DNA from: Ostreococcus lucimarinus
Taxonomy: Eukaryota
DNA: 64,000 nt
Reading direction: 5' to 3' (one strand)
NCBI GenBank assembly: GCA_000092065.1
Contig: CP000583.1
Part shown: piece by piece, positions 9,687 through 60,887 of the stretch
Layout: the number at the start of each line of letters is the position of its first letter
Numbering within the stretch: position 1 is the first letter of the stretch
The notes under the pieces: generated by a model
Seen by the model: only the letters and a program-made list of their open reading frames with translations
Told to the model about the DNA's origin: nothing
The model's database searches: none
Made by a program: the position numbers and the translations under genes

Positions 9687-11063
9687 ATGATGTCGGAGGA
9701 GAACGATGCGGGCGCGGAGGACGCGCCGCCGCCGGCGTACGAAAGCATTCACTTCGCCGAGGATGCCGACGCGCTGCCGGAGGTGCCGCGGGATGGATAC
9801 GTGAAAACGAAGACGATCGAGGTGAGCGTGACGAATCCGACCAAAGTCGGCGACGGGTTGACGGCGTACGCGGTGTACACGGTGAGCACCAAGAATAAAG
9901 ATCCGGCGTATAAAAAGGATGAATCCATCGTGGTGAGAAGGTATTCCGACTTTCAGTGGTTGCGCGGACGCTTGTCGACGCTGTACCCAGGCATCGTGTT
10001 GTTTCCGCTGCCGGAGAAGACGGTGACGACGAATCCGTTTCAGAGCGATTTCTTGGAGCATCGTCGAAGCGGTTTGGAGGCGTTCATGAAGAAAGTGGTG
10101 GAACATCCGGGACTCGGAACGTGCGAAGACGTGGTGATGTTCTTAGAGGAACAGGGGGGGAGTTCGTGGGACCAGCGCGCCCCGTGGTATTCGCGCGGCG
10201 CGGTTGGCACCGCGCTCGGAGCCGTGGATTCTTGGTTTCAGTCCATCGGTACGGCGACGGAGACGTGGAGCACGGGCGCGGGGATGGAAAGTGTCATGAT
10301 GGAGGAAGATCCCAAATATCTCGAAGCTACGGAATATTTGTTGCTCCTCGAAGAGCGCCTGAAGCGAGCGCTGAAGAGCGGGGGTGAAATCGTCAACGCG
10401 GTGCAGAATCTCGGCATTTTAACCGGTACGTTTGGAGAAAACGCGCATCACTTAGGCGACTGCGAGGAAAAAGGGGCGAAGATGTTGCTCGGCGATGAGG
10501 CCGGGGGATTAGGGCAAGCGTTCAGACAGGTTGGTTCCGCCGCGTGCACGATGCGGGCGCCGACGGAGGCGCAAGCGGAGCGCTTGGCGAAAGAGTTCCG
10601 CGCGCCGTTGAAACAAGCGCTGCAATACGTGCGCGCGGCGAAAGAATCAATAGACGCGCGCCTCGACGCGTTGTTGAAGCTGCAAGCGTGCCGCGCCAAG
10701 GTGCAGTCCAAGCGCGCCAAGCTTGAACACGCGTTGCACGCGCCGCCGCCGCCGCCGCCGCCGCAACCGACGACAATTTTTGAGCGCCTCTCCGCTGCCG
10801 TCACATCCCCGACGCCCGTCACCGTGGAAGAATTACAGCGCGATGTCGGCCTCGCTGAATCCGCGGTGAACGACGCGCAAGCAAAGTACGACGACATCAA
10901 ATCTCGCATGACCAACGAGCTCCCGCGCGTGCACGCCGAATTAGAACAAGTCATCAACGCCGCCTTCGCGAACTGCGCCGTCACCATGAAGGCGCTCGCC
11001 GAGACGCACGTCGAGGCTTGGGAATCCGTCTTCCCCGGGTGCACCGCCGACGCCGCGGCGTGA
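9687..11063 (+). CDS. PX-BAR sorting nexin (Vps5/SNX1-2-like retromer subunit)
   Basis: PX domain signature RRYSDFQWLRGRLSTLYPGIVLFPLPEK is followed by a long helical BAR-like C-terminus and a poly-Pro linker. Confidence 0.8.
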   Translation: MMSEENDAGAEDAPPPAYESIHFAEDADALPEVPRDGYVKTKTIEVSVTNPTKVGDGLTAYAVYTVSTKNKDPAYKKDESIVVRRYSDFQWLRGRLSTLYPGIVLFPLPEKTVTTNPFQSDFLEHRRSGLEAFMKKVVEHPGLGTCEDVVMFLEEQGGSSWDQRAPWYSRGAVGTALGAVDSWFQSIGTATETWSTGAGMESVMMEEDPKYLEATEYLLLLEERLKRALKSGGEIVNAVQNLGILTGTFGENAHHLGDCEEKGAKMLLGDEAGGLGQAFRQVGSAACTMRAPTEAQAERLAKEFRAPLKQALQYVRAAKESIDARLDALLKLQACRAKVQSKRAKLEHALHAPPPPPPPQPTTIFERLSAAVTSPTPVTVEELQRDVGLAESAVNDAQAKYDDIKSRMTNELPRVHAELEQVINAAFANCAVTMKALAETHVEAWESVFPGCTADAAA

Positions 11064-11180
11064 CCCGGCGCATCCATCAAACGCGTGTAAAAATTACATT
11101 TCGATACGATTTCGCCAAGCGTCTCGCCGCGCTTTGACTGCTCGAGCGCCACGCAATCGTCATTGACGACCGCGTCGCGA

Positions 11181-12568
11181 ATGGCTCGCGCGTCCGCGCA
11201 ACGCGCGCTCGCCCTGCTCGACGCAGAACGCGACGAAGACCCTCTCGCGTACATCGCGCGCGGTAACGCACGCGTCGTGCGCGAAAACTTTCTCGATCTC
11301 ATCACGGTGCGCACGCACGATTCCAATCCAAGTTGGTTACCTTTTACTGACGTAAAGCGCAGCGGTTTCCCTCGCTCACGGTGCGAGACGACGATTATTA
11401 TCACAACGATGGCTCGCGCGAGCGATTGCTGTGCGCGGAAGGGACGATACCGATCGAATACAACGGTGCGAGGTATAACATTCCGGTGAAGATGTACGCG
11501 CCCAGCGACTATCCGACGACGCCGCCGACGTGTTTCGTGACGCCGACGAGAGATATGGTAGTAAAACCGAATCACGGGTGCGTGGAATCAGATGGAATGG
11601 TGGTGATCGAACGCGTGTTTCGATGGGATCGTCGGCGGAAGATGAGCGATGTGGCGCGGGCGCTGAGCGACGTGTTTAGCGCGGAGCCGCCGCTGTTTTC
11701 GAAACCGGCGCGCGGGGTAGGGAACGCGGGAGAGGCGACGCAGCGCACGGCGACGGCGTCGACGGCGGAGACGAGACCAGAACGAGTCCCGTTTAGCGTG
11801 TCTGTCGAACGACGACCGAGTTTGAACGAGCGTTTCGCGCAAGGGCAGCGAGCAACGACGAGTCCGCGCGCCGACGACGCGACGGCGGCGCAGGCGTGGT
11901 TTCGTCAAACAGCGATACAGTCTTTGACGGATCGCTTGAAGTCTGGCACCGAACATCATTTAGATGCAAACGCACAGCTCATCGAAACGCTCTTGGCGCA
12001 TCAAACCGAGCTTTACGCGAGAAAGATTAATCTAGAACAGGAAAAGGGCGTGTTGCGATCGATGTGCGATCAGTTTGAACGCGACGCGCAGGAGCTCAGA
12101 GGGGCGACGGCGACCATGGAACGGTGGCTTGAAGCGCACCCAGACACAGGAGAAGTGTCGTTCGATCCCGAAACCGCGATCGAAGCCGCCGACGCGATGA
12201 GTCGTCAGCTCTTAAACGCGCACGCCAAGGATGCAGCCATCGAAGACGCGCTCGACGCGTTGGACGAACTCCTCAACGACGGCAAAGTCCAACTCGAAGA
12301 CTACATGCGTCAGGTGAACAAACTGTGCAAAGAACAATTCATCGCTCGCGCTGAGATACTCGTCGTGTCGAGGATGCAGCAAGAGCGCGGTGTGACGAAT
12401 GGCTTGGCGCCGCGCGACGACGGCGCCGAATCGCCGCGAGACGTCGATTTCGATTTTCTTCGCCCGCGACCGCCGCAATCATCGCCGCCACCGCGCGAGA
12501 CGCGCAAACCACCGCCATCGTGGAATTCAAATTCAAATTCGAATCCGACCGGGTGGTGGGATTGTTAG
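11181..12568 (+). CDS. TSG101: ESCRT-I subunit TSG101/Vps23 (UEV domain, coiled coil, C-terminal steadiness-box region); exons 11181..11306 and 11363..12568 with a 56-nt intron
   Basis: UEV core NDGSRERLLCAEGTIPIEYNGARYNIPVKMYAPSDYPTTPPTCFVTPT matches TSG101 [48 protein letters not shown]. Exon 1 ..ENFLDLIT joins RFPSLTVRDDDYYHNDGS in frame. The intron is GTGCGC...tactgac...GCGCAG with a branch-point-like TACTGAC. Confidence 0.8.
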
Positions 12569-28074: not shown

Positions 28075-29199
28075 ATGGCGCGGCGCAACCGAGCGTTGCG
28101 TCTCGCCCGCGGTCTCGCGGTGTGCGCGGCGCTCGTCGTCGTCGTGTGGGCGCTGCAGAGTGCGATGGGTTCTTTGAACATGGGTTCCGAAAACGCGCGT
28201 TCGGCGTCGATGCGCGGATCGTGGCCTCGCCGTGGACGCCCGAACGACGATTCGCATTCGTCGTCGTCGTCGACGAGCGCCTTCGCCGCGGGTCAGGCGT
28301 CGGTCGGGCCGCGCGTGTTCGAAGACGCGCACGCGGCGTGCGCGGCACCGAGCGTTCGAGCGGCGGCGCCGTCGGAACGCTCGAGAAAGGTGGCGGTGGA
28401 AAAGGCGAGAGACATAGCGAATGGAGGGTACGAAAAAGTGAGACAAGGCAGCGGAGACGTGCTGGTGCACGGGATGGTGACGGCGATGTTGTCGAATTAT
28501 CAGCACGACGACATGAGCTTGTTCGGCGCCGTCGGCGAGTTGGGAGTCCACCACGGTCGGTTCACGAGCTGCTTATTTATCACCGCAGACGCGAGCGAGG
28601 CGCTAGTGGCGGTGGATGTCTTTGAAAAGCAAAATTTGAACGTCGACGGCAGCGGTCATGGCAGTTATCATCGATTCATGCAAGCCATGTCGCACCTCGG
28701 GCTGCGATTCCGCGACTTTGCGCTTTTACACAAAGGATCGACGACAGATCTCGCGACGGATTGGCTTTCGAAGCACCACATCGATCCATTCCGCTTAGTA
28801 TCGGTCGATGCCGGACATACGGCGGAGTTAACGTTTCGAGACTTGGGCGCGGTGGCGTGTAATTTGGCGCCCGGCGGCGTCATCGTCGTGGACGATTTTT
28901 TCCACCCGCACTGGACCGGCGTGACCGAAGGCTTGTTCCAATACCTCACGCGTGGTGCTGTGCGTCTCTACCCCTTCCTCGTCTGCGCTGGGAAGGTTTA
29001 TCTCACGAACGACGCGTCGGCGCACGAGGCGTACGCGCGTCGTCTCCAATCCGACGCCGCCGTGGGCGAATTCTTCAAATCCGACAGCGCTGAGTTTCAC
29101 GGTTCGACGTACCACGAAATGGCGGGCGTTCACTTCCTCAACTGTCCCAACGTCGATCGCGCGCGCGTCACCGCGCGTTGGCTCGACGAGATACGTTAG
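28075..29199 (+). CDS. Type II membrane protein with a C-terminal class I SAM-methyltransferase-like (Methyltransf_24 / TylF-like) domain
   Basis: N-terminal signal anchor LAVCAALVVVVWAL. C-terminal LVSVDAGHTAELTFRDLGAVACNLAPGGVIVVDDFFHPHW resembles the ..PGGIIIVDDY macrocin-O-MTase-type fold. Low specificity. Confidence 0.4.
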   Translation: MARRNRALRLARGLAVCAALVVVVWALQSAMGSLNMGSENARSASMRGSWPRRGRPNDDSHSSSSSTSAFAAGQASVGPRVFEDAHAACAAPSVRAAAPSERSRKVAVEKARDIANGGYEKVRQGSGDVLVHGMVTAMLSNYQHDDMSLFGAVGELGVHHGRFTSCLFITADASEALVAVDVFEKQNLNVDGSGHGSYHRFMQAMSHLGLRFRDFALLHKGSTTDLATDWLSKHHIDPFRLVSVDAGHTAELTFRDLGAVACNLAPGGVIVVDDFFHPHWTGVTEGLFQYLTRGAVRLYPFLVCAGKVYLTNDASAHEAYARRLQSDAAVGEFFKSDSAEFHGSTYHEMAGVHFLNCPNVDRARVTARWLDEIR

Positions 29200-38435: not shown

Positions 38436-40229
38436 ATGCTGAATGGTAAAGGGCGTTCGCCGCGCGCGCGCGCGGCGCGAGCATTGACGACGTCGTCGCA
38501 CGCGCGCAGGCTCCTCGTGAAGCGCGCGTTCAACAGACGCGCGTTGGAGACGCACCCAGACAAAGGAGGCGACGCGGACGCGTTCCAAGCGATGTACGAG
38601 GCGTTTCAAGAGCTCAAACAAGCGTTTCTCGATGGCTTCTCGGAATTCGCGAAGTGCATCGAATCGGCGCCGGCGAAGGCGAAGGCGAAGGCGAAGGCGA
38701 AACGAACGATGGTAGACGCGCCAGAACTCATGGGTAAGCGACGGACGATTCCACCGTACGAGTTCTTTCAAACCGCCGCTGAACGAGACATTCCGTTCTG
38801 GAAAATTGAGTTGGCGGCGTCGGGCAGAGCTCGCTGCACCGGCTCGCGCAAGTCCCTCGGCAGCGTCGGTCGCTGTCGAAACACCAATGAAGGATCGAAG
38901 GTGGATCAGCCGAGAAGCGTGGGTCCCGGTCCCGGTCCCGGTCCCGGGTCATCGAGAGCGCTCGTCGCCGACGTGTTCGGAATCATCAAGAAGAACGCTG
39001 TGCGCGTGGGCTTAATGGATCCAGAATCTGGCGCGTACTGCCGATTCGTTCATTTGCGATGTTGGCGTGTGCCTCAGGCGGTGTGGTACAATCTTCCGCA
39101 GTACCCCGACGATACGACTGAGTATAGCGTCGATGAGTTCAAAAGACGCTTGGTCGATATGGACGGCGTCGTCTTCGTCGGGTTGAACAAACTTTGCGAT
39201 GAAGACATCACGCTCGTCGCCGAACACGCGATGAATCAGGAGGCGTGGGCGGCGTTCAATCAGAAGAAATATGTCGCCGCTCGAGCTGCTGGCCTTCCGT
39301 CATCGCGGGTTCAACTTCTTTCGAAAGACGAAATCAAAGTACTGCAGAAACTAATGTCGAAGGCGACGTCTTTAGTGCAAGAACCAGAGCAAGACGAACC
39401 GCTCGCCGCGGTGACGAAGCAGGAATCAAAACCGGAACCAAAACGAACGGACCACGATGAGTACGACGTCGTGACTGATGACGACGAACACGAAGATGGC
39501 TTGCAAGTGGCGCCGAATGTCGGCACCGCGATCGCCGTGCAGAAACCAAAAGAGGAGAAGCCACCACCGAAGATTTTGATTCCCGTCCCTGGCGAAAACG
39601 GCGCAATCGCCAACTCACTTCTTCGCGACAATTCCAAACCCATGACGTTCGTGCTGACGGGAATTTTTCCGGATCTCGGAGGCGATCGAATCGGTCTGAT
39701 GCAAGGCAAAGACATGGCGGAAAAGCTGATTCAGCGGTTTGGAGGCGTCGTGCGGAGCGCGGTTTCAGGCGCAACTGATGTTTTGCTCGTCGGCGAAGAG
39801 CCAGGCGTTTCGAAACTATCAGCTGCGCGCACGAAAGCGAACTGCAAAGTTCTCAATCTCGAACACATCCTCGACATGATTCACGGGCGCTCCATTGAAG
39901 GGAAACGGTTGCAAATTGAAAGATTCAGCACAGGTTTTCATGGAAATTCGTTAGCGTACGATATGACGCGAGCCGAATTGGAAGAGCTACGGACGGGAGC
40001 CAAAGCGCTTCCTTCGACGATGAAAACAGAGGAGCCACAACTTCTACCATCGTCCAAGTCGACAACGCGTAAGCGCAAAGCTCTTCCTTTGTCCACGAAA
40101 GACGAAGCGCAAAAGAATTTGACGTTACCCGCACCTGATAAGCCGCCGCGAAATAAGAAGCCAAAACGCTCGCCGAAAGCGCCCGTGCGAAGCTCGCGTC
40201 GTCTCGCCGCACTGACGAACGCCGCGTGA
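38436..40229 (+). CDS. Protein combining a J-domain (HPD) segment, a PARP-type zinc finger and a BRCT domain; candidate DNA-damage factor
   Basis: J-domain helix II/III ..RRALETHPDKGGDADAFQAMYEAFQEL. zf-PARP: KIELAASGRARCTGSRKSLGSVGRC...YCRFVHLRCWRV, compared with PARP1 RVEYAKSGRASCKKCSESI...HWYHFSCFWKV. BRCT: MTFVLTGIFPDLGGDRIGLMQGKDMAEKLIQRFGGVVRSAVSGATDVLLVGEEPG. K/P-rich tail. Confidence 0.65.
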   Translation: MLNGKGRSPRARAARALTTSSHARRLLVKRAFNRRALETHPDKGGDADAFQAMYEAFQELKQAFLDGFSEFAKCIESAPAKAKAKAKAKRTMVDAPELMGKRRTIPPYEFFQTAAERDIPFWKIELAASGRARCTGSRKSLGSVGRCRNTNEGSKVDQPRSVGPGPGPGPGSSRALVADVFGIIKKNAVRVGLMDPESGAYCRFVHLRCWRVPQAVWYNLPQYPDDTTEYSVDEFKRRLVDMDGVVFVGLNKLCDEDITLVAEHAMNQEAWAAFNQKKYVAARAAGLPSSRVQLLSKDEIKVLQKLMSKATSLVQEPEQDEPLAAVTKQESKPEPKRTDHDEYDVVTDDDEHEDGLQVAPNVGTAIAVQKPKEEKPPPKILIPVPGENGAIANSLLRDNSKPMTFVLTGIFPDLGGDRIGLMQGKDMAEKLIQRFGGVVRSAVSGATDVLLVGEEPGVSKLSAARTKANCKVLNLEHILDMIHGRSIEGKRLQIERFSTGFHGNSLAYDMTRAELEELRTGAKALPSTMKTEEPQLLPSSKSTTRKRKALPLSTKDEAQKNLTLPAPDKPPRNKKPKRSPKAPVRSSRRLAALTNAA

Positions 40230-56542: not shown

Positions 56543-57391
56543 CTACTCGCGCATCTCGGCGCTTTTCGCGCAACCACAGTCGTCCGAGTCGCCGAAGTCG
56601 CGCCTCGACGTCGCGTCGCGCTCGGTGACGGTGATTCGCGACAGCAGCGCGTCTAAGGGAGATAAAGTCGGGGAATACGCGCGCGAGGGAACGCGCGTCG
56701 GCGACGACGGCGACGACGGCGACGGCGGCGACGGCGGCGACGCGCGTTCTAAATCGTCATCCGCTACGTCGTCCGCCGCTCGTTCGCGCGCGTCCGCCTC
56801 GCGCGCGCGCCTCGCGTCGGCGGCGCGCAGACGCTCGATTTCCTCGATCAACGATTCGACTTTTTGTTCGAACGCCGCGAGCGACGCGACGTGATACTCG
56901 AACGACACGACTTCGGGCGAACCGTCGCCGCGCGTCGCCGCCGGCGCCGACCGCCGCGCCGCGCCGCGCGTCGCGCGCGTCGTCCCCAACAGCCGTCGCA
57001 GCTTGTGTAACTCCACGTCCTGCGTCTTCGCCCTGCCGAGCAACCGCTCGCACTTGCGCGCGAGGTCCGCGCGAGACCGTCTCGCCTCGTCGCGCTCGCG
57101 CGTCAGCCTCGCGCACCGTCCTCGCAGCGCGTCCATCGCCTTCGCGTCCGACGCGCGCGACGACGACGCGTTCTCATCGTTCGCCGCGAGCGCGTCGCGC
57201 GCGTCCCGCGGTCTCGTCTTCGCCGTCGTCTTCGCCGTCGTCTTCGACGCCGACGTCGTCGAATTCAAAGCCATCGCGCGTCTCGCCTCGAGCTGTCCCA
57301 GGAGCTGTCGCGCCACCGCGCGCGCGTGTCGCTCCTCGGCGTCCATCGCCTCGGCGCGCGCGAGCGCCGCGCCCGTCGGCGACGCCGCCAT
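56543..57391 (-). CDS. Hypothetical coiled-coil protein
   Basis: 282-aa helical, charged ORF (..LTRERDEARRSRADLARKCERLLGRAKTQDVELHKLRRLLG..). Confidence 0.35.
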   Translation of the reverse strand: MAASPTGAALARAEAMDAEERHARAVARQLLGQLEARRAMALNSTTSASKTTAKTTAKTRPRDARDALAANDENASSSRASDAKAMDALRGRCARLTRERDEARRSRADLARKCERLLGRAKTQDVELHKLRRLLGTTRATRGAARRSAPAATRGDGSPEVVSFEYHVASLAAFEQKVESLIEEIERLRAADARRAREADARERAADDVADDDLERASPPSPPSPSSPSSPTRVPSRAYSPTLSPLDALLSRITVTERDATSRRDFGDSDDCGCAKSAEMRE

Positions 57392-57617
57392 GTCGACGCG
57401 TGCGGCGTTCGCGCGCGGCGACGGACGACGGACGACGGACGACGGGTCGCGCGCGCGTCGATCGCGCGATCGAAAAAACCGTAACCTTGCGCGCGTGCCG
57501 TAGAATCGATGGCCTCCTCGAAATTTAGCGGTTTTAACGCCATATAATCGTGCGGTTGTGACCGAGTGTTTCTCCGTCTCCGCGGCGAAGGAAGCGAATG
57601 GACGCAGACAACCCAGA

Positions 57618-57716
57618 GCGTTCGTGACCGAGTGGTTTTAAGGTGCTCGCCTGCTATTGATGAGAGCAGTGAGTGAGTGTGCTCTGCACGCCCAGGTTCG
57701 AATCCTGGCGAACGCG
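57618..57716 (+). tRNA. tRNA-Ser (anticodon GCU) with a 15-nt intron 3' of position 37; copy 1 of a tandem array
   Basis: Acceptor GCGTTCG/CGAACGC, D-arm ACCGAGTGGTTTTAAGGT, anticodon loop CUGCUA + intron TTGATGAGAGCAGTG (its AGC pairs with the anticodon), 3' stem GTGAG, long variable arm GTGCTCTGCACGC (identical to the human tRNA-Ser-GCT variable arm), T-arm CCAGGTTCGAATCCTGG, discriminator G. An oligo-T (T6) terminator follows immediately. Confidence 0.75.
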
Positions 57717-57766
57717 TTTTTTATTTTACAGTTTTACGGCGCCATCGCGACGCCATCGTGCCGCTA

Positions 57767-57866
57767 TCGTTCGTGACCGAGTGGTTTTAAGGTGCTCGCC
57801 TGCTATTGATCGAGAGCAGTGAGTGAGTGTGCTCTGCACGCCCAGGTTCGAATCCTGGCGAACGCG
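57767..57866 (+). tRNA. tRNA-Ser (GCU) copy 2, 16-nt intron; position 1 is U (U1:C72 mismatch)
   Basis: Same structure as copy 1, 150 bp downstream. The intron has one extra C (TTGATCGAGAGCAGTG). Followed by T6. It may be less functional because of the acceptor mismatch. Confidence 0.6.
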
Positions 57867-57916
57867 TTTTTTATTTTACAGTTTTACGGCGCCATCGCGA
57901 CGCCATCGTGCCGCTA

Positions 57917-58016
57917 TCGTTCGTGACCGAGTGGTTTTAAGGTGCTCGCCTGCTATTGATCGAGAGCAGTGAGTGAGTGTGCTCTGCACGCCCAGGTTCG
58001 AATCCTGGCGAACGCG
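57917..58016 (+). tRNA. tRNA-Ser (GCU) copy 3, identical to copy 2
   Basis: Identical 150-bp unit. Followed by T6. Confidence 0.6.
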
Positions 58017-58100
58017 TTTTTTATTTTACAGTTTTACGGCGCCATCGCGACGCCATCGTGCCGCTATCGCGATGGTACAGACGCCGCCTCGGCCTTCTTC

Positions 58101-58637
58101 TCAGTCGAGAACGATGGGCGCGTCGTCGTCCGCCTCCGCGTCCAACACCACCACCGCATCGTCCCCCCCAGGCGCCGCCAACAACCGACTCTCATCACGC
58201 GCCGTCCCTCCCAATCGCCGTCCGCCGCCGCGCAGACCGACCTCGGCGAGTCGCGCGCGTCTCGCCGCCGCGTCTCGCGCGTTCGTCCGCGGCGACCGCG
58301 CGCGTCTCGCGCCGCCGTCCCCGCCCACGCACCGTCCGCACACCACGAAATCGCTCGCCATCATCACCGCCGCCTCGCGCTCGAGCGTTCGCAGCAGCGC
58401 GTAGAACGTCGCGTCGTGCGGTCCGATCTCCACGTGCGTCAGCTCGTGCAGCATCACCGCGAACACTTGCTCCTCGTCGATCCATCGATACGCCGCCTCG
58501 CCGCGCCCTCGTCGCTGTCGCACCAGCACCCGCACGCGCCTGCCTCGGTCGAGATTGTCCCCCCAGAGCGCGATCTCGCCCGGCGGCGCCGGCGGGAGCT
58601 CGGTGAGCTCGCCGACGCGCCATCCGCGACGCTTCAT
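58101..58637 (-). CDS. WLM-domain (Wss1-like) zinc metalloprotease
   Basis: HExxH in VFAVMLHELTHVEIGPHDATFYALLRTLERE, typical of the WLM domain. Confidence 0.6.
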   Translation of the reverse strand: MKRRGWRVGELTELPPAPPGEIALWGDNLDRGRRVRVLVRQRRGRGEAAYRWIDEEQVFAVMLHELTHVEIGPHDATFYALLRTLEREAAVMMASDFVVCGRCVGGDGGARRARSPRTNARDAAARRARLAEVGLRGGGRRLGGTARDESRLLAAPGGDDAVVVLDAEADDDAPIVLD

Positions 58638-58800
58638 GAGACCGTGCGCGCGCCTCGCGACGCGATGGAGCGTCGCGAGCGCTCGCGCGCGCTCGACGGC
58701 ATCGCCCGCGGCGTGCGCGACGACGCCGTCGAACGCGTCGACCGGGTACGGGCGGTCCAGCGCGCGCGTCGTCGTCCGCGCGACGGCAGCGCGCGACGCG

Positions 58801-59595
58801 ATGTCGAGCGCGCGCGTCGTCGTCGCGGCGCGACGCGGCGTCGCGTCGCGCCGCGGCGCGCGGACGACGACGCGCGGGGCGACGCCGAACGACGCGCGGT
58901 CGGACGAGCTCGTGCGCGCGTCGGCGCGCGCGGCGGCGGACGCGAAGGCGGCGGTGACGCGGCGAAACGTCAGGGCGACGGTCGAGGCGCGGAAGCGCGC
59001 GGACGAGGACCGCGAGGCGGCGGCGCGCGAAGAAGCGGCGGCGGAGAAGCGGGCGCGCGCGGAGGCGCGCGCGGCGGCGATCGGGGGACGACGGCCGTTT
59101 CATCGAAAGGCGGGACCGATCGCGGCGGCGGGCGCGGCGTGCTTGGCGGCGACGGCGGGGTGCTTCGAGGCGACGGTGCACGCGGGGGATTGGATAAACG
59201 CGCTGGCGGTGCCGGGAGACGCGCTGGTGGGGGCGAGCGGGGCGCCGGCGAAGAGCGGGCTGTTGACGCTGACGATCGGGGTGGGATTGACGGTGACGTC
59301 GACGCTCGCGTTTTCGACGGCGATTTTGTTCGCGTTGGCGTTTCAGGAGGGGAAGGGCGTGATAAAGAACGAACCGATCGTTTATTACCGATGCGACGGC
59401 GCCGATCCGACGTGTTGCGTGAACGGGCCGCACAACAAGGGGTATCACGAGCGGTTCGTGTACATGAATCACGGGCGCGGGTTCGAGACGCGACGGGCGG
59501 GGTGCATGCAAAGACATCTTCGCGTGTCGCGCGGGTGCTCGGCGCTCAAACCGTTGATCGTGTACCCGAAAGACGAGGACTGGGGATTCTGGTAA
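58801..59595 (+). CDS. Hypothetical membrane protein with a Cys-rich C-terminus (start uncertain)
   Basis: Charged helical N-terminus, hydrophobic segments (LLTLTIGVGLTVTSTLAFSTAILFALAF) and a C-terminal YYRCDGADPTCCVNGPHNKGYHERFVYMNHGRGFETRRAGCMQRHLRVSRGC. Confidence 0.35.
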   Translation: MSSARVVVAARRGVASRRGARTTTRGATPNDARSDELVRASARAAADAKAAVTRRNVRATVEARKRADEDREAAAREEAAAEKRARAEARAAAIGGRRPFHRKAGPIAAAGAACLAATAGCFEATVHAGDWINALAVPGDALVGASGAPAKSGLLTLTIGVGLTVTSTLAFSTAILFALAFQEGKGVIKNEPIVYYRCDGADPTCCVNGPHNKGYHERFVYMNHGRGFETRRAGCMQRHLRVSRGCSALKPLIVYPKDEDWGFW

Positions 59596-59660
59596 ATCTA
59601 CCGTCGCCACTAGATTTTAGCGTAATTTGTACAAACAACAGCGTCGGCGGGCGACTTTCT

Positions 59661-60887
59661 CTAAGACGACGCGCGCACGAAGAACGTTTGCGCGTCGAGC
59701 GCCGCGAGCGCGGGCGCGTCGCCGCCGTCTTCCCGCAACACGACTTCCCCGGCGCGCGTGGTGAGCTCGAACGTGGGCATCGACAACACCGCGTCGTCTA
59801 AACTGCGCGCGTAATCGAACACGTCGCGAATCGTAGACGCGTTCGCGTCGAACTTGCGCGTCTTCACCGCGCCGTTCGGCAAACTAAATCGAAGCGCCAC
59901 TACGCCCGGCGTTCCGCGCGCGGCGCTCGGCTCGGGCGCTATGGACGCGCGCAACGTCGCTTTACGAGTCTCGAACGCCTCTTGTTCGGCTAATTTAGCT
60001 CGCTCGCGCTCGGCGAGCGCCTCTTTCGCCTTTAAGAATTCCTCCTTGCGCCGGCGCTCGCGAGCGGCGATCTCATCCATCACGCGCTCGTACTCCTCGC
60101 TCGGTTCGAGCTCGACCTCTACGTCGGTCTCGAGTAAAGACACCGCGCCGAAACCGTCGTCCGGTTCCACCGCCGTCACCTTGAGCTCGTACGTCTTGCT
60201 CGGATCCGTCGTCGACGCGACGACGACTTCGTCGCCCACCGTCGCCGCGCTTCGCCCCATCATCACGCGCTCCAGCACCTCGCGCACGTCCTGATCCACG
60301 AAATCCCGCGCGAAATCATTCATACGAGGTTTCAGCGTCATCTTCGTCCCAAGCGGTAGCGCCGCGTACGTCACTCGCACCAGTCTCGCGTCGGCGTCCG
60401 CGCCGTCCTCGCGCGCCGCGTCCCCCGTCAACCCGAGCGTCCGCATCACCGGCTCCGGCAGCCCGATCGTCCCCGAATCCACGCTCCCGTAATCCAACAC
60501 CCCAACGTGCGTCTTCCTCTCTCCTCTCGACACGCAAAAGTGCGCGCGTCCGCTTCGATTCGCCCCCACGCTCGCCGCCGCGCTCGCCGGCAGTTGCGCC
60601 TTGTCCTCGCCCCGCGCGCGAATCCCCCGCCTCCTCGCCGCATCGCTCGATTGCGCGAACAAGCGCGCGTCGTACGACACGCCTTCGTTTTGCACCATCA
60701 TCGCCTCCTCGGCGCGCCGCTGTTCGCGCTCTCGCGCTCTCGCGCGCATTTTTTCATCGTCGAGCTGTTTTCGTAACGCTTCTTTCCGCGCGTTTTCCGC
60801 GCGCTCGACCGCGATCTTGTCCCGCAGCCTTCCCTGTTCGCGCGCGTTCTCCCGTTCGAGCTTCTTCGCCGCGTCGCGGAGGAACAT
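59661..60887 (-). CDS. UFD1-domain protein with a C-terminal UBX/ubiquitin-like domain and an N-terminal coiled coil (p97/Cdc48 cofactor-like)
   Basis: UFD1 N-domain THVGVLDYGSVDSGTIGLPEPVMRTLGL...KTYELKVTAVEPDDGFGAVSLLETDVEVELEP matches UFD1 [27 protein letters not shown]...[30 protein letters not shown]. The C-terminal VVALRFSLPNGAVKTRKFDANASTIRDVFDYARSL... is UBX-like. ATG at 60887. Confidence 0.6.
   Translation of the reverse strand: MFLRDAAKKLERENAREQGRLRDKIAVERAENARKEALRKQLDDEKMRARAREREQRRAEEAMMVQNEGVSYDARLFAQSSDAARRRGIRARGEDKAQLPASAAASVGANRSGRAHFCVSRGERKTHVGVLDYGSVDSGTIGLPEPVMRTLGLTGDAAREDGADADARLVRVTYAALPLGTKMTLKPRMNDFARDFVDQDVREVLERVMMGRSAATVGDEVVVASTTDPSKTYELKVTAVEPDDGFGAVSLLETDVEVELEPSEEYERVMDEIAARERRRKEEFLKAKEALAERERAKLAEQEAFETRKATLRASIAPEPSAARGTPGVVALRFSLPNGAVKTRKFDANASTIRDVFDYARSLDDAVLSMPTFELTTRAGEVVLREDGGDAPALAALDAQTFFVRASS

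Follow-up and report, generated by a model that had tools for sequence, protein, structure and literature searches.

Three tandem tRNA-Ser(GCU) genes at a structurally variable nuclear locus of Ostreococcus lucimarinus

We analysed a stretch of 64,000 nucleotides from contig CP000583.1 of Ostreococcus lucimarinus (assembly GCA_000092065.1; hereafter the window), in which an earlier note made from the sequence alone (the original prediction) had described three 150-bp units, each with a complete class II tRNA-Ser(GCU). Our analysis recovers these units: the tandem array at 57619-58069 very probably consists of three nuclear tRNA-Ser(GCU) genes, placed head to tail by a recent segmental tandem duplication of a single-copy gene. 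The array is real, ordinary and essentially known: arrays of this kind have already been noted for the species, and the sequence belongs to a published reference genome. The structural polymorphism of the locus between strains is more interesting than the array itself and may merit specialist attention.

Anatomy of the array and its genes

Tandem Repeats Finder describes 57619-58069 as a tandem repeat with a period of 150 bp (3.0 copies, 99% matches, score 895), and a repeat search of the window places the unit starts 149 and 150 nt apart. Each unit comprises tRNA positions 2-73 and 50 nt of 3' flank. Over their 150 bp, units 2 and 3 show 100% identity, both in the repeat search and in a script comparison. 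With three head-to-tail copies at a regular period, where at least two define the class, the array is a tandem tRNA gene homocluster. Its features are the following.

57619-58069, plus strand: tandem array of 3.0 units of 150 bp (Tandem Repeats Finder and repeat search).
57618-57716, plus strand: copy 1, tRNA-Ser(GCU), 99 nt; exon 1 57618-57656, 15-nt intron 57657-57671, exon 2 57672-57716.
57767-57866, plus strand: copy 2, tRNA-Ser(GCU), 100 nt; exon 1 57767-57805, 16-nt intron 57806-57821, exon 2 57822-57866.
57917-58016, plus strand: copy 3, tRNA-Ser(GCU), 100 nt, identical to copy 2; exon 1 57917-57955, 16-nt intron 57956-57971, exon 2 57972-58016.
57625-57635, plus strand: A-box-like element of copy 1, TGACCGAGTGG, matching TRGCNNAGTGG at 10 of 11 positions.
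57695-57705, plus strand: B box of copy 1, GGTTCGAATCC, a perfect match to GGTTCGANTCC.
57717-57722, 57867-57872 and 58017-58022, plus strand: T6 run directly 3' of G73 in each copy, read from the sequence; putative RNA polymerase III (Pol III) terminator.

The original prediction had proposed a search with the Rfam tRNA model RF00005 as a check. This model gives a score of 43.9 bits (E 4.8e-6) for copy 1 (57618-57716) and of 35.0 bits (E 1.3e-3) for each of copies 2 and 3, in which it flags the pair 1:72 as non-standard. All three exceed the gathering score of 29, and they are the sole Rfam matches in the 64-kb window. ARAGORN, when introns are allowed, agrees: it calls three tRNA-Ser(gct) genes, and each spliced 84-nt sequence is also called tRNA-Ser(gct). 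The genes thus combine a cloverleaf score above threshold with GCU at positions 34-36 of a 7-nt loop, a long variable arm and G73, as is typical of class II tRNA-Ser(GCU). Under its default settings, ARAGORN calls copy 1 tRNA-Asn(att) and misses copies 2 and 3. We rejected this call as an artefact of ignoring the intron, because both the intron mode and the spliced sequences give Ser(gct). That a default run miscalls one gene and loses the other two is a practical pitfall for annotation.

Direct reading of the sequence bears out the anatomy given in the original prediction, i.e., the D arm GAGTGGTTTTAAGG, the anticodon GCT, the variable arm TGTGCTCTGCACGC and the T loop TTCGAAT. In copy 1, the acceptor stem is GCGTTCG/CGAACGC, the D stem has 3 bp and encloses the loop GAGTGGTTTTAA, and the anticodon stem CTCGC/GTGAG carries the loop CTGCTA|A, with the anticodon at 57653-57655. 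The variable region is 14 nt long and has a 4-bp stem. It is followed by the T arm (CCAGG-TTCGAAT-CCTGG), the acceptor strand and the discriminator G73; the CCA end is not encoded in the gene. The pair G1:C72 is intact in copy 1, and position 1 is a T in copies 2 and 3, giving a U1·C72 mismatch, as had been noted before and as the Rfam flag indicates. The T6 runs lie immediately after G73, where they had been predicted to be. T runs end Pol III transcription, and the A-box (TRGCNNAGTGG) and B-box (GGTTCGANTCC) consensus sequences mark Pol III type 2 promoters. Since the A-box-like and B-box elements of copy 1 recur in copies 2 and 3, all three units have the internal boxes and a T run of at least 4 that characterise a type 2 unit.

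The earlier reading would have fallen had the conserved pairs not formed a cloverleaf. They do. We made a gap-free alignment of five Ser(GCU) sequences (copy 1, copies 2/3, an intronless paralogue from other strains, the orthologue of a sister species and a low-GC orthologue), in which 98.3% of the cells form standard pairs and 11 of the 24 pairs change on both sides, i.e., are compensatory. None of 500 shuffles matches this pairing, and partners slid along the alignment are paired in 29-50% of cases. The only unpaired acceptor-stem cell is the U1·C72 of copies 2/3.

The intron lies right after A37, as placed by aligning the gene without gaps to the intronless paralogue and to an intronless orthologue, and thus at the canonical 37/38 position of eukaryotic nuclear tRNA introns. 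It reads TTGATGAGAGCAGTG (15 nt) in copy 1 and TTGATCGAGAGCAGTG (16 nt) in copies 2 and 3; the one extra C in the latter had been noticed from the sequence, and the register is backed by the intronless paralogue. ARAGORN prefers an intron of 11/12 nt, with the same 5' site and an end 4 nt earlier, because GTGAG is present twice, in overlapping form. We rejected this register: the paralogue and the orthologues have a 14-nt variable region directly after the anticodon stem, and an intron of 15/16 nt gives the canonical 3-nt bulge. When the anticodon arm is folded in isolation, C32-U36 (CUGCU) pairs with the intron AGCAG, including a predicted C32:G(-3) anticodon-intron pair, and the 3' splice site falls in a 3-nt bulge (UG|A). 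The AGC of the intron had been proposed to pair with the anticodon, and this CUGCU/AGCAG helix is in line with the proposal. In the predicted fold, pairing and bulge together make up the canonical anticodon-intron arrangement.

The intron varies between alleles, as seen when the copies of the window are compared with the genes of seven other loci of our comparison, referred to here by number (L001, L002, L014, L016, L012, L021 and L022). Among O. lucimarinus alleles, it is 14, 15, 16 or 18 nt long and the exons are invariant. The differences are confined to its 5' part, and the 3' end AGAGCAGTG is kept in all four length variants, a pattern that fits a constraint on the pairing around the splice site. 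In the sister species, an intron of 39 nt occupies the same position; its sequence is unrelated, and it also has a G at -3. In Saccharomyces cerevisiae, too, tRNA-Ser(GCU) has a short intron, located at 37/38 and paired with the anticodon loop. The isoacceptor and the intron position are thus alike, the lineage differs and the intron sequences are unrelated; the comparison indicates that an intron in Ser(GCU) is not unusual among eukaryotes.

From these elements, we infer that the array genes are transcribed, spliced and aminoacylated. Each unit would give its own Pol III transcript, driven by the internal A and B boxes and ending at the T6 run. Maturation would involve end trimming by RNase P and tRNase Z, excision of the 15/16-nt intron at 37/38 by the tRNA splicing endonuclease, and addition of the unencoded CCA. 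The codons read by the resulting 84-nt tRNA would be AGC and AGU; AGY makes up 30% of the 332 Ser codons in 12 open reading frames (ORFs) of the window. Copy 1 looks fully functional. Copies 2 and 3 carry all promoter, splicing and identity elements, and their product with U1·C72 is probably less stable.

Origin of the array and alternative explanations

The single-copy alleles of four loci (L001, L002, L014 and L016) have both flanks in common with the window and thus provide the parental breakpoints: CCCAGAG-CG-TTCG before the gene and GCCGCTAT-CG-CGATGG at the end of the 3' flank. The tandem junction of the window reads GCCGCTAT-CG-TTCG. Together, these sequences indicate that the 150-bp unit was duplicated across a CG microhomology, which also explains why the new copies have T instead of G at position 1. 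A breakpoint between tRNA positions 1 and 2, as had been proposed, is compatible with the junction; the exact site is not fixed, because the CG common to both parental breakpoints allows the junction to be placed anywhere from 1/2 to 3/4. The intron of the single-copy alleles (TTGATCCGAAGAGCAGTG) has 18 nt, to which the 16-nt intron is nearer than the 15-nt one, suggesting that copy 1 lost one more C after the first duplication. We infer the following order of events: the unit (positions 2-73 and 50 nt of flank) would have been duplicated across the CG, with G1 becoming T in the new copy; one C would then have been lost from the intron of copy 1; and another unequal exchange would have produced copies 2 and 3. 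Since these are identical over 150 bp, the last step must be very recent.

The upstream fragment of a tRNA 5' end has a different history.

57538-57571, plus strand: relic of an older paralogue; 5' flank AACGCCATATAATCGT, then GCGGTTGTGACCGAGTG, corresponding to tRNA positions 1-17 (57552-57568), after which the similarity breaks off.

The fragment exists as originally described: 57552-57571 is identical to the tRNA 5' end at 17 of 20 positions (repeat search, family D4). The suggestion that it is a by-product of unequal crossing-over in the array did not hold. It lies 66 nt, not 150 nt, before copy 1 and so does not follow the 150-bp period; all single-copy alleles have it too (including L001 and L002); and the stretch formed by the flank AACGCCATATAAT and the fragment is 82.5% identical over 40 nt, in inverted orientation, to the 5' end, with its flank, of the intronless Ser(GCU) gene seen in other strains (haplotype B, below). 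Judged by this homology, the fragment is the stump of an older, truncated tRNA-Ser paralogue, and its inverted orientation suggests an old inversion or inverted duplication at the locus. In one single-copy allele (L016), about 30 nt (GTCTCCGCGGCGAAGGAAGCG...) located between the relic and the tRNA are additionally duplicated.

Several observations weigh against three functional genes formed by tandem duplication. The exact tandem junction GCCGCTRTCGTTCGTGACCGAGTGG has no match in the metagenome contig collection. A search of the metagenome contigs with the tRNA 5' half, which supplied the comparison of copy number across related strains that had been called for at the outset, returned 12 other loci, each single copy. 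The copy number of three therefore rests on one assembly and on the indirect break point of a Logan contig. As to function, U1·C72 costs copies 2 and 3 9 bits of model score, and they may be poor substrates or give unstable products. Finally, the minimum-energy fold of the whole tRNA adopts the alternative GTGAG register, so that energy alone does not set the intron boundaries.

The distribution of the junction seems to confine the triplication to the CCE9901 lineage, and it could also be read as an assembly artefact, with truly one or two copies and a misassembled short repeat. We consider this very unlikely. The tandem junction is indeed absent from the other assemblies searched, and the locus is hard to assemble, with N gaps or duplicated flanks exactly here in L001, L005, L008 and L010. 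Yet two positions set copy 1 apart from copies 2 and 3, implying at least two real and distinct units; 150-bp tandem repeats are usually collapsed, not expanded, by assemblers; and the CCE9901 genome was finished to a high standard. Independent reads point the same way. Among two short Logan contigs found by looking up the neighbouring 282-aa and 287-aa proteins, the one that carries the exact 282-aa allele of the window (run SRR23274481) stops at window position 57648, 30 nt into the repeat. Logan assemblies use k=31, and this is where a k=31 graph is expected to break if the 5' half has two predecessors (G+CGTTCG and T+CGTTCG), as the junction predicts. The other contig stops before the array and is uninformative. 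Because short-read assembly fails at this locus, little can be concluded from short-read assemblies that lack the array.

A more serious alternative, possible though doubtful, accepts the three copies and takes copy 1 as the sole working gene: copies 2 and 3 would be young pseudogenes that add no decoding capacity, their U1·C72 impairing RNase P processing or exposing the tRNA to decay. That mismatch is the one non-standard acceptor-stem cell among the five homologues, it accompanies the drop from 43.9 to 35.0 bits and a change in predicted fold energy from -39.9 to -35.3 kcal/mol (z-score -1.3), and one copy or none at the locus suffices in other strains. However, copies 2 and 3 retain intact promoter boxes, terminator, intron pairing, variable arm and G73, both remain above the gathering threshold, and their identity makes them too young for decay or selection. 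Far less probable than that, and less so than an assembly artefact, is that the array acts as a set of permuted tRNA genes, in which one transcript would span a 3' half, the 50-nt spacer and the following 5' half, and would be matured after circularisation at the intron-derived bulge-helix-bulge. O. lucimarinus does have four permuted tRNA genes, all with junctions at 37/38, M. pusilla has a permuted Ser(GCT), and an artificial tandem transcript was processed in this way in vitro (PMC3978253); the spacer is also within the known range of 7-74 nt. The array is nevertheless not circularly permuted: it contains complete canonical genes, there is a T6 terminator between every 3' half and the 5' half that follows, and the acceptor stem of the product would have U1·C72. 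The least probable explanation of all is the insertion of a SINE-like (short interspersed nuclear element) tRNA-derived mobile element or of a virus-derived tRNA cluster. It would agree with a locus that is highly rearranged between strains, but the unit is exactly the single-copy gene with its own 3' flank, with no A tail and no target-site duplication, the sister species has Ser(GCU) at the syntenic position, and the tRNA 5' half has no match in the viral contig collection. Tandem duplication of a resident gene is thus the reading that we retain.

The difficulty of assembling the locus has some visible traces. In L001, L005, L008 and L010 (region 10538-11200), there are N runs or duplicated flanks exactly at this position, and L005 shows a head-to-tail fusion of two allelic 3' flanks.

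The locus in other strains and the relation to known tRNA arrays

To the triplicated array, the assemblies carrying a WLM-domain protein identical to that of the window, together with near-identical contigs from the metagenome scan, add three other states of the locus. Haplotype A has a single intron-containing gene. In L002 (10622-10723, minus strand), this gene was unreported when four loci (73 kb) were run together in gathering mode and scores 43.6 bits when searched alone: Rfam's speed filters may drop intron-containing tRNAs, and the earlier miss was a loss at the filter, not an absence. Haplotype B (L003, L004, L006, L009, L017 and L018; also L015) has an intronless Ser(GCU) on the strand of the WLM gene, with an anticodon stem that differs from that of the array genes and is fully paired (AGAGC/GTTCT) and an Rfam score of 53.3 bits. 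The locus lies at about 10538-11250 in L003, L004, L006 and L009, and the intronless tRNA at 10978-11061 on the plus strand of L004. About 400 bp beyond it, just the 3' half of the intron-containing gene is found, starting inside the intron (ATCCGAAGAGCAGTG|A...). Haplotype C (L007, 10538-10760; JGI 3300047157, Ga0494219_00019, 961,940 bp) is haplotype B minus about 445 bp, which leaves the 3' half alone; a search of the L007 locus gave no tRNA match at E values up to 1. Either this genome has another Ser(GCU) gene elsewhere or the 445-bp deletion is an assembly error. In the sister species, whose WLM protein is 63% identical, the Ser(GCU) with the 39-nt intron is at the syntenic spot on the WLM strand, i.e., in the opposite orientation.

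The number of intact Ser(GCU) copies at the locus therefore ranges from 0 to 3 across assemblies. The intron-containing and the intronless paralogue seem to have decayed reciprocally in different haplotypes. Within a near-minimal tRNA set, the only Ser(GCU) locus seen swings between 0 and 3 intact genes and between intron-containing and intronless forms. This makes it a convenient natural system for studying the tolerance of tRNA dosage, the loss or retention of introns, and tandem genes as raw material for permuted genes.

Arrays of this type have precedents. O. lucimarinus has 44 reported tRNA genes, four of them permuted (PMC3673656). Soma 2014 (PMC3978253), in a passage crediting Maruyama et al. 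2010, mentions tandemly repeated copies of one intron-containing tRNA species in both O. lucimarinus and Chlamydomonas reinhardtii and presents such repeats as a possible intermediate stage towards permuted tRNA genes. As cited there, the O. lucimarinus arrays resemble ours in organism, head-to-tail copies and 37/38 intron, and, as the window appears to come from the CCE9901 reference, the array in question is probably the present locus. Tandem tRNA clusters are also well known in plants (PMC13578239). The homo- and heteroclusters of Arabidopsis (Pro, Ser-Tyr-Tyr; Hummel et al. 2020, as summarised in PMC13578239) likewise consist of tandem Pol III units with their own terminators that arose by segmental duplication. 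According to that summary, they number tens of units, whereas the O. lucimarinus array has three, in a genome with 44 tRNA genes (PMC3673656), and carries a 1:72 mismatch made by the junction itself.

The comparison with the permuted tRNA genes of Ostreococcus, Micromonas and Cyanidioschyzon (Soma et al. 2007; Maruyama et al. 2010) is closer. The array fits the first step of their proposed origin, and other haplotypes of the locus retain a 3' half that starts inside the intron. Unlike permuted genes, those of the array are canonical, with T6 between the halves, and no haplotype was seen in which a 3' half, spacer and 5' half stand alone. There is a slim chance that a single species complex displays, at this locus, the duplication as well as the loss of the route proposed for permuted tRNA genes. 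The loss step would then be represented by haplotypes B and C, which lack the 5' half up to a breakpoint within the intron. The intron itself is polymorphic in its presence, since some strains have the intron-containing gene and others an intronless paralogue in inverted orientation, in a genome with a total of about 44 tRNA genes. Should Pol III occasionally read through the T6 run, the array could already yield permuted pre-tRNAs. As it stands, the outcome is a correct annotation of three tRNA genes, and its practical value is small.

Neighbouring genes and the intergenic gap

The array occupies much of a 709-bp gap between the start of one gene and the stop of another, both on the opposite strand, and a long ORF runs through its third copy.

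56543-57391, minus strand: 282-aa hypothetical protein (ORF list), whose start codon faces the array.
58101-58637, minus strand: WLM-domain metalloprotease, 178 aa (Pfam WLM, E 6.4e-25), whose stop codon is 85 bp past copy 3.
57969-59801, plus strand: 610-aa ORF, a spurious off-frame open stretch in GC-rich DNA.

Orthologues of the 282-aa gene are called in related loci, and its protein cluster has 125 members. The WLM protein and the 597-aa protein at 38436-40229 (plus strand) have identical counterparts in O. lucimarinus CCE9901, XP_001416842.1 and XP_001416548.1, respectively. The latter sequence occurs in the CCE9901 reference only, and the window is therefore almost certainly part of that reference chromosome. 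The surrounding genes include WLM, UFD1, TIM21, TBCC, NAD kinase and PEMT, all eukaryotic housekeeping genes; such genes are found on contigs of about 960 kb, and the context of the array is thus nuclear. Given these neighbours and the protein matches to O. lucimarinus, we discarded a bacterial or archaeal origin. The 610-aa ORF had been dismissed as spurious from the start, and rightly so: it has no Pfam match, it shares sequence with the WLM gene on the opposite strand and, in another frame, with a called 264-aa gene (58801-59595, plus strand), and it is called as a gene in none of 10 related loci. A long GC-rich ORF across the array could mislead gene callers.

Elsewhere in the window, the intron mode of ARAGORN called a tRNA-Glu(ctc) with a 149-nt intron at 28094-28339 (plus strand). 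The call sits inside a coding ORF (28075-29199) for a methyltransferase-like protein, Rfam has no match there, and it is probably a false positive. Just upstream of the start of the 282-aa gene, a (CGACGGA)n repeat (57419-57445) differs in copy number between alleles (window, L001-L009); the whole intergenic gap is prone to indels.

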